Position numbers and translations under genes: made by a program
Assembly: GCF_056746865.1 (NCBI RefSeq)
Contig: NZ_CM163382.1
DNA: 64,000 nt
Reading direction: 5' to 3' (one strand)
Shown here: one piece after another, positions 54,348 to 55,448 of the stretch
Position numbering within the stretch: the first letter of the stretch is position 1
Layout: each line of letters begins with the position of its first letter
Notes under the pieces: generated by a model
What the model saw: the letters and a program-made list of their open reading frames with translations, nothing else
Told to the model about the DNA's origin: nothing
The model's database searches: none

Positions 54348-55448
54348 TTAGAACTGATAGGTAATGCCCGTTGCGACGATGTTATCGGTGCGAATATCTA
54401 CGGCACGGGTAAAGTCGCTTTCATCAATCAGGTTGATTTTATAATCAACATAGGTCGACATATTTTTGTTGAAGAAATACGTCGCACCAACGTCGATATA
54501 CTCAATCATGTCCTGGTCGCCGTAGCGGCCCAGATCTCTGCCTTTCGATTTCAGGTAAGCGAGTGATGGGCGCAAGCCGAAGTCGAATTGATATTGTGCC
54601 ACTACTTCAAAACTTTGTGCTTTGTTAGAGATATAACCATCGCCATAGGTGGTCATGTTTAATGTTTCAGCGTAATTAGCTGCAAAGTAGATGTTGTTGG
54701 CATCATATTTTATACCTGTAGCCCACAGTTCTGCATTCTTACCGGAGGCATTGAGAGGATTAGCAGCGGCTCTTTCCTGCGCATTTGTCCGATCGGATTT
54801 GGTATACACCGCACCGATACCAAAGCCATCATAAACATAAGTTGAGGAGATACCGAAACCGTCACCATTGGCACGCGTGTAGTCAGCACCATAAAGATGA
54901 CCATTGTCAGTGCGTTCATTTTTGCCTTGATATTGCGCGGCAAAGTTCAGACCTTCAATTAAGCCGAAGAAATCGTAGTTGCGATAGGTTGCCACACCGG
55001 TAGTACGGTATGTCATGAAGACATCTTTCTGACTCCAGGTATCGCCACCAAATTCTGGCAACATATCGGTCCATGAACCAATGTCATAGCCGACACCGTA
55101 GTTACGACCATAGTCCAGAGAGCCAAATTCACTAATTTTTAAACCTGCATAGGCCAGACGGGTCTTGTTACCGCGCGAGCCGTTGGCTTCATCGTTATAG
55201 CCTTTAAAATCATATTCCCAGTGACCAAAACCAATCATTTGATCATTGATTTGCGTTTCTCCTTTAAAGCCGAGACGGGCATAAGTTTTATCACCATCGT
55301 CACGCTTATCATCAGTAAAATAACGTAGAGCGGTAACCTTGCCATAAAGGTCGAGTTTATTACCATCCTTGTTATAGACTTCGGCAGCGTGTGCTACGTT
55401 CGCAGCTAACAAACCAGTTACAACCACCGCAACTATTTTTAATTTCAT
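54348..55448 (-). CDS. OmpC/OmpF-family general porin (intact; K-12 yddL position)
   Basis: 366 aa; signal peptide [21 protein letters not shown] then [16 protein letters not shown]..., C-terminal ...TGITYQF. Confidence 0.8.

Follow-up and report, generated by a model that had tools for sequence, protein, structure and literature searches.

An intact porin gene between yddG and narU in Escherichia coli, the positional counterpart of Salmonella ompD and of the K-12 fragment yddL

A complete general porin downstream of yddG

The DNA analysed here, called the window throughout, is a stretch of 64,000 nucleotides from contig NZ_CM163382.1 (NCBI RefSeq assembly GCF_056746865.1), and it is 99.86% identical to the genome of enteroaggregative Escherichia coli (EAEC) 042 over 21.9 kb. 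The gene under study encodes a porin of 366 amino acids and lies on the minus strand, with yddG upstream and two leucine-rich-repeat (LRR) open reading frames (ORFs) followed by narU downstream (Table 1). It is highly probable, in our judgment, that this ORF encodes a functional general-diffusion porin of the Porin_1 family and that E. coli inherited it vertically as its orthologue of Salmonella OmpD. An earlier note, made by inspection of the same DNA, had described a complete general porin ORF with a signal peptide and a TGITYQF end, placed between the LRR genes and yddG. Both parts of that description agree with the present analysis, the first through the ORF list and the Porin_1 match and the second through the order of the neighbouring genes.

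The encoded protein is identical to RefSeq accession WP_000768393.1. Residues 27-366 cover the entire Pfam Porin_1 model (PF00267, positions 1-337 of 337) at an E-value of 2.2e-134, which places the family match far beyond chance. The NCBIfam "porin OmpC" subfamily model is passed with 495 bits against a cutoff of 484, while the scores fall well under the OmpF and PhoE equivalog cutoffs. A phmmer search of the PDB sequences gave E-values of ~1e-127 to OmpK36/OmpC and ~1e-112 to OmpF, and the C-terminal aromatic beta-signal (...YQF) is present. The AlphaFold2 model, computed from a 44-sequence alignment, has a mean predicted local distance difference test (pLDDT) score of 76.7 and displays 16 long strands, together with a helix of low pLDDT at residues 4-15 of the signal peptide. 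Foldseek matched this model to OmpC, OmpK36, and OmpF with template modelling (TM) scores of 0.85-0.92 (0.85/0.90 for OmpC 2j1n), and 335 PDB matches were found at E <= 0.001. In the alignment to OmpF, all six constriction residues (K16, R42, R82, R132, D113, and E117) and the PEFGG motif are kept in the window porin.

These features outline a conventional porin. The precursor would be exported via Sec, with the signal peptide cut after AHA at residue 21, and the C-terminal YQF would act as the assembly signal read by the beta-barrel assembly machinery (BAM) complex. The mature protein would then form a 16-strand beta-barrel, presumably a trimer, in which loop L3 (PEFGG, D128, and E132) is folded into the barrel opposite a basic cluster of K37, R58, R97, and R148. 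Between them, loop and cluster would narrow the pore to a constriction selective for size and charge, open to the diffusion of small hydrophilic solutes. That the window porin forms trimers, acts as a channel, and is expressed is what we infer.

Table 1. Coordinates of the porin gene, its signals, its neighbours, and the deletions that affect it (positions in the window)
Feature	Position	Strand	Basis or remark
Porin coding sequence (CDS), 366 aa	54348..55448	-	Sole ORF at these coordinates; ATG start; C-terminal TGITYQF
Sec signal peptide, residues 1-21	55386..55448	-	Read from sequence; aligned to OmpC/OmpF/OmpD signal peptides and mature PDB N-termini
Loop L3 (constriction loop), residues ~118-147	55008..55097	-	PEFGG (131-135), acidic D128 and E132; alignment to OmpF
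Position orthologous to the MicC site of Salmonella ompD (+66..+79)	55370..55383	-	Degenerate
Upstream leader/promoter-proximal region	55449..55535	-	Alignable by blastn to Salmonella/C. koseri ompD; Shine-Dalgarno AAGGA
Candidate promoter ATGTCA-18-TAAAAT	55523..55494	-	Consensus match only
Terminator-like hairpin	54313..54336	-	GC-rich; 12 nt past porin stop; 9 pairs, 6 G-C, loop of 6, T-rich tail TTTGATTTAA
yddL stump, part of porin kept in K-12	55165..55448	-	Porin nt 1-284; blastn
K-12 deletion 1, ~1.5 kb	53633..55164	-	Porin nt 285 to LRR-A nt 552; short microhomology at junction
K-12 deletion 2	52660..53300	-	LRR-A fused to LRR-B at ATTGAxTTATC microhomology, giving chimeric yddK/yddJ
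Segment absent in ~1160 genomes	51476..55629	-	4.15-kb deletion, yddG then abuts narU; example strain M16807
yddG, drug/metabolite transporter (DMT)-family exporter	55707..56588	-	NCBIfam YddG equivalog, 471 bits; upstream ompD neighbour in all genera examined
LRR-A, 421 aa, leucine-rich-repeat, 042 orf1600 type	52919..54184	-	GC 35%; probably outside the porin transcription unit; frameshifted in O157 as Z2240/Z2241 (PMC3079680)
LRR-B, 431 aa, orthologue of O157 type III effector EspR1	51601..52896	-	90% aa identity; GC 33%

Synteny and sequence relationships of the porin

The gene order surrounding the porin is conserved across genera. In Salmonella and Citrobacter koseri the order is fdnI-fdnH-fdnG / yddG, porin, GFA-domain gene, major facilitator superfamily (MFS) transporter, TetR regulator, narU, and narZ, and Escherichia albertii has the same overall frame from fdnGHI to narU-narZ, with a porin after yddG that is interrupted there by the insertion sequence (IS) IS1. 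The window has the same fdnGHI-yddG-porin...narU-narZ frame, with the two LRR genes standing where the GFA/MFS/TetR block would be. The blastn alignment to Salmonella and C. koseri ompD extends beyond the coding region to 87 nt upstream of the ATG (position 55535), and at the nucleotide level the porin gene matches Salmonella at 71% and the flanking yddG and narU at 76%. The closest relative outside E. coli is the syntenic porin of C. koseri (78% identity); Salmonella OmpD is 72-74% identical, and the proteins named "porin OmpD" in Salmonella and Citrobacter range from 70 to 74%.

OmpD is a major porin in Salmonella, and its gene is often labelled nmpC in the Salmonella literature. The window porin matches OmpD of Salmonella enterica (STM1572) in position, family, signal-peptide type (MKLKxVAVxVT...), and pore residues. 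It differs in length (366 versus 362 amino acids), in a longer loop 4 and a shorter loop 6, and in the genes that follow, which are LRR effector genes in the window and the GFA-domain, MFS, and TetR genes in Salmonella, the last two of which are named smvA and smvR in the literature. As judged from the conserved gene order, the window porin is the positional, vertically inherited orthologue of Salmonella OmpD. ompD would then be ancestral at the yddG locus, and the GFA/MFS/TetR block would have been replaced in E. coli by a pair of low-GC, EspR-type LRR genes.

The earlier note had allowed that the gene might simply be ompN or another known porin in a new place. The window porin is 63% identical to OmpN, 62% to OmpC, 60% to OmpF, and 59% to PhoE of K-12. 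These four proteins have the Pfam family, the fold, and the constriction-zone residues in common with it, yet they are paralogues and not orthologues, and their genes lie at other loci (ompC, b2215, by micF/rcsD; ompN, b1377, by micC/ydbK; ompF by aspC; phoE by proB). OmpN was rejected on identity and locus, and so was OmpC proper, for which the NCBIfam model passed by the window porin is moreover of the subfamily and not the equivalog kind. The NmpC (DLP12) and Lc (PA-2) porins belong to the same OmpD/NmpC subgroup and are 67-71% identical to the window porin, but they are prophage-borne and carry the signal peptide MKKLTVAISAVAASVLMAMSAQA, whereas the window porin has a different signal peptide and stands in a core chromosomal context with phage genes absent around it. 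The gene is thus a known porin in that it is the orthologue of Salmonella OmpD and already bears the name ompD in EAEC 042, but it has not been relocated, as it occupies the ancestral position.

Two further porins were encountered in these comparisons. The "ompD" of E. coli ATCC 25922 (PMC7696260) is annotated as "porin protein LC" and listed with the phage-type genes bet and exo, and it was set aside as probably a prophage NmpC/Lc gene. A 2107-nt ENA contig (P0001) encodes a porin that is 85% identical to the window protein but begins with a signal peptide of the OmpC type (MKRKVLAMLVPALLVAGAANA); this porin may have arisen by recombination or be the orthologue of another Escherichia lineage.

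Two deletions produced yddL and yddK in K-12

The earlier note had matched the gene by its position to yddL, a fragmentary pseudogene in K-12, and the alignments agree: compared with OmpC, OmpF, OmpN, PhoE, and yddL, the window gene is a distinct porin, and yddL, which aligns to porin nt 1-284 only, is truncated rather than equally intact. MG1655 yddL (b1472) is an ORF of 96 amino acids, and in the K-12 strain GM4792 the NCBI Prokaryotic Genome Annotation Pipeline (PGAP) describes it as "porin, incomplete, missing C-terminus". Its first 284 nt (92 codons) are those of the porin at >99% identity, and it has the upstream region and the neighbour yddG in common with the window gene. The remaining 817 nt (~74% of the porin gene) are missing, and the ORF ends in four junction-derived codons (...GSRGKNL*). 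Since only the signal peptide and about three initial strands are left, the product cannot form a barrel.

The blastn comparison of the window with K-12 yields three collinear blocks, at 56700..55165 (yddG and porin nt 1-284), 53632..53301 (the middle of LRR-A), and 52659..49800 (LRR-B from nt 238 through narU), separated by the two deletions listed in Table 1. The first takes 74% of the porin and the 5' third of LRR-A. The second joins LRR-A to LRR-B, which accounts for the matches of YddK to both LRR proteins, with YddK residues 1-96 corresponding to LRR-A residues 200-295 (96% identity) and residues 93-317 to LRR-B residues 80-304 (91%). The chimeric yddK/yddJ occupies 3385-4715 of the K-12 locus L012. 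Judged from these junctions, YddK of K-12 arose by deletion, as a chimera of two EspR-type LRR genes, and not by insertion. A previous study proposed that the K-12 locus was disrupted by "insertion of yddK" (PMC3079680), a proposal that the two deletion junctions contradict.

Locus states and selection across E. coli genomes

The porin gene was searched by megablast against 5426 complete E. coli genomes, with a coverage of at least 80% counted as full-length. Three states were recovered, with shares of about 20% intact, 58% stump, and 21% deleted. A full-length copy is present in 1111 of the 5426 genomes, and all sampled rows are single matches of 1101 nt annotated as "ompC: porin OmpC". Only porin nt 1-278/284 are found in ~3150 genomes, annotated as "yddL: porin", and ~1160 genomes lack any match to the porin gene. 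A query with the 4.3-kb yddG-narU interval returned the same three states, with the full island (>=80% coverage) in 1008 genomes. The porin has also been inactivated by an IS3 insertion in strain SCU-105, where the gene is otherwise 100% identical, and by the IS1 copy of E. albertii mentioned above. The number 1111 is an upper bound for intact genes because such IS-type inactivations exist.

Six intact E. coli alleles were compared. The synonymous divergence (dS) reaches 0.18, while no pair differs by more than six amino acids. Substitutions occur in 14 comparisons; the ratio of nonsynonymous to synonymous rates (dN/dS) lies at 0.02-0.04 in 13 of these and at 0.14 in one. This substitution pattern indicates that the intact alleles are under strong purifying selection and that the porin is maintained by selection wherever it is intact. 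The exact window protein occurs on at least 1000 contigs in the protein collection. The 90%-identity cluster containing the window porin is represented by a LepA (elongation factor 4) of 603 aa, apparently through an artefact of the clustering; its size of 9017 is unusable for this reason, and the LepA representative explains why the porin's own cluster did not top the homology search.

Expression signals and codon usage

The porin gene is likely its own transcription unit, as its upstream promoter-like hexamers and the terminator-like hairpin behind its stop codon point to an independent monocistronic arrangement. A scan of the whole window at the Rfam gathering thresholds gave no match near the porin, and the sole hit was a SECIS element in fdnG. 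Farther upstream, a GATCACA block (~55590-55575) is conserved in E. coli, Salmonella, and C. koseri and looks similar to a CRP half-site; dependence on CRP has been reported for Salmonella ompD. The block lies ~120 nt from the candidate -10, a placement too uncertain for it to be claimed here as a CRP site. A GC-rich inverted repeat (GTCGGGTCTACGGCCCGGCAG) at 55676-55700 on the minus strand, just downstream of the yddG stop, is kept in porin-deleted genomes and is probably the yddG terminator.

Several observations weigh against regarding the gene as a functional, vertically inherited ompD. The frequency of optimal codons (Fop) is 0.56 for the porin, compared with 0.91 for ompC, 0.79 for ompF, and 0.78 for Salmonella ompD; the values are 0.52 and 0.64 for the minor porins phoE and ompN and 0.82 for the C. 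koseri relative. In Salmonella, ompD is reportedly repressed by two small RNAs (sRNAs), MicC through a site in the coding sequence (codons 23-26) and RybB through the 5' coding sequence. At the MicC site, Salmonella and C. koseri have 12 contiguous pairs and a predicted pairing energy of -15.8 kcal/mol, whereas the E. coli gene has two mismatches and only -6.8 kcal/mol; at the RybB site the E. coli gene has -13.7 kcal/mol against -18.3 kcal/mol. All these values are site-restricted duplex predictions that consider pairing only. In unconstrained duplexes of MicC, RybB, and SdsR with the region -90..+150, the long pairings of the E. coli gene were no better than those of shuffled controls. The recurrent loss of the gene shows that the porin is dispensable, and the literature that could be searched gave no functional, expression, or channel data for the E. 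coli protein. On the side of orthology, Salmonella OmpD is 81% identical to prophage NmpC/Lc and 74% to the window porin, which is probably why the literature equates ompD with nmpC. In a neighbour-joining (NJ) tree (100 bootstraps), the gene takes a basal position in the OmpD/NmpC group, the internal support being 47%; since this value is too weak alone, orthology is called mainly on synteny. The weak codon bias and the degenerate MicC and RybB sites suggest that the gene encodes a minor or conditionally expressed porin in E. coli, unlike the major porin of Salmonella.

It would be a further step to regard the gene as intact but effectively silent, a cryptic porin that drifts toward a pseudogene and contributes nothing to the cell, and we consider this improbable. 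The independent losses (the K-12-type deletion, the complete deletion, IS3 in SCU-105, and IS1 in E. albertii) are in its favour, as are a codon bias as low as that of the quiescent phoE and ompN and a candidate -35 that appears weaker than the aligned Salmonella promoter region. Neutral drift, however, would give a dN/dS of ~1, far from the 0.02-0.04 that most pairs of the six alleles show at dS values of up to 0.18. All six alleles are moreover free of stops and frameshifts and retain every pore-lining residue, and the occurrence of the exact protein sequence on at least 1000 contigs also speaks against silence.

If the gene is indeed a functional ompD orthologue, a tentative account of its history, one we hold to be possible but on balance unlikely, is that the ancestral OmpD was demoted in E. 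coli from a major porin, of the kind found in Salmonella and Citrobacter, to a weakly codon-adapted, conditional one largely free of MicC and RybB, and that the intact/stump/deleted polymorphism is kept by opposing selection. Nutrient and solute uptake in the gut would favour keeping the porin, and entry of phage, antibody, or antibiotic would favour losing it. A demoted OmpD of this kind would be a lineage marker with phenotypic consequences in pathogens of phylogroups D and E (EAEC 042 and O157).

Origin of the porin and its LRR neighbours

Okeke et al. (PMC3079680) described the yddG-narU interval as O-island 62, comprising z2239-z2242 in EDL933 and orfs 1601-1599 in 042. They pointed out the similarity of yddL to the 5' end of z2239 and associated the island with ECOR group D, O157/O55, and Shigella. 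Their treatment of z2239-z2242 as one island of 33-36% GC raises the alternative that the porin was acquired horizontally with the LRR genes as part of this low-GC element and inserted next to yddG. The GC content of the porin (44%) does lie under that of the flanking yddG and narU (49-50%), the window porin is the most divergent member of the OmpD group, with Salmonella OmpD nearer to NmpC/Lc, and the ~1160 genomes with the complete deletion present a clean empty site. We nevertheless regard the transfer as very improbable. In Salmonella, C. koseri, and E. albertii, a porin of the same clade occupies the site right after yddG and LRR genes are absent, the 5' leader can be aligned across genera, and the porin has diverged from its Salmonella counterpart about as far as the flanking core genes have. 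The GC content of the porin is, furthermore, like that of phoE (44.7%) and ompN (46.6%) and 9-11 points above that of the LRR genes. Vertical descent of ompD at this locus remains the preferred explanation.

The LRR genes form an insertion of low GC content that is specific to E. coli, and both are intact in the window. The two proteins are 29% identical to each other, and both have weak matches to the LRR region of the effector SlrP. The O157 EspR1 protein is annotated in RefSeq as a type III secretion effector, and LRR-B, being 90% identical to it, should not be counted among surface proteins. In EAEC 042, which shows a 1-nt mismatch to the window, and in SCU-105, whose flanks are 100% identical, LRR-A is missing from the intact CDSs annotated by PGAP.

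The earlier note had also suggested that the porin may belong with the LRR proteins beside it to a surface-related module inherited as a unit, an idea that finds no support here and is most improbable: the genes are adjacent on the same strand, K-12-type and complete deletions each remove porin and LRR sequence together, and PMC3079680 treats them as one island, but a terminator-like hairpin separates the porin from LRR-A, the base composition differs (44% versus 33-35% GC), the LRR proteins belong to the EspR1/SlrP-like class of type III effectors, which are injected into host cells and not surface-exposed, Salmonella, C. koseri, and E. albertii have the porin at this locus but not the LRR genes, and the porin is intact beside degraded LRR genes in strain 50579417 and roughly 100 further genomes (1111 versus 1008). 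The porin and LRR genes are neighbours that one deletion can remove, and they are not a functional surface module.

Earlier descriptions and significance

The intact gene has been reported before. EAEC 042 Ec042-1601 has 0 nucleotide mismatches to the window gene, and the genome paper of that strain lists "an apparently functional ompD (Ec042-1601)" among six intact porins (PMC2808357). In enterohaemorrhagic E. coli (EHEC) O157, Z2239, the first gene of O-island 62, is 98.1% identical at the nucleotide and 99.2% at the amino acid level. The novelty is therefore low, as the gene is identical to one already called ompD and lies inside a published island; with the intact gene on record for both 042 and O157, the finding is known and ordinary, and the current understanding of porins is unchanged by it. 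The small additions made here are the two-deletion architecture of K-12 yddL-yddK-yddJ, the frequencies of the locus states, the strong purifying selection on intact alleles, and the differences from Salmonella ompD in codon bias and sRNA sites.

The genome paper of EAEC 042 equated the K-12 counterpart with the nmpC pseudogene and not with yddL (PMC2808357). The true K-12 counterpart of Salmonella ompD is yddL and not the prophage gene nmpC, though nmpC is closer in sequence. The MG1655 RefSeq record keeps yddL as a 96-aa protein, and a study from 2023 treated it as an uncharacterised 96-aa beta-barrel protein with a possible role in osmotic stress (PMC9976479); against this idea of a small barrel, yddL is only the N-terminal stump of ompD. 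PGAP names the window porin "ompC" or "porin OmpC" because the hidden Markov model of the OmpC subfamily is passed, and the use of this name for an OmpD orthologue leaves ~1100 complete genomes with two genes called ompC.

Strains such as EAEC 042 and O157:H7 possess an extra general porin that is absent from models based on K-12. Because Salmonella OmpD is a protective antigen, the additional porin could have a bearing on antibiotic permeability, phage receptor range, and antibody targets.

Other features of the window

The SECIS element is an Rfam SECIS_3 match of 84 bits at 57402-57460 on the plus strand, inside fdnG (56820..59867). The in-frame selenocysteine TGA of fdnG causes the gene to be seen as two ORFs, at 56820..57407 and 57456..59867. 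On the minus strand, the narZ ORF at 46066-49929 encodes 1287 amino acids when read from an upstream ATG, while NarZ as annotated in related genomes takes up 3741 nt with its stop codon, giving 1246 amino acids; the upstream extension is probably untranslated.

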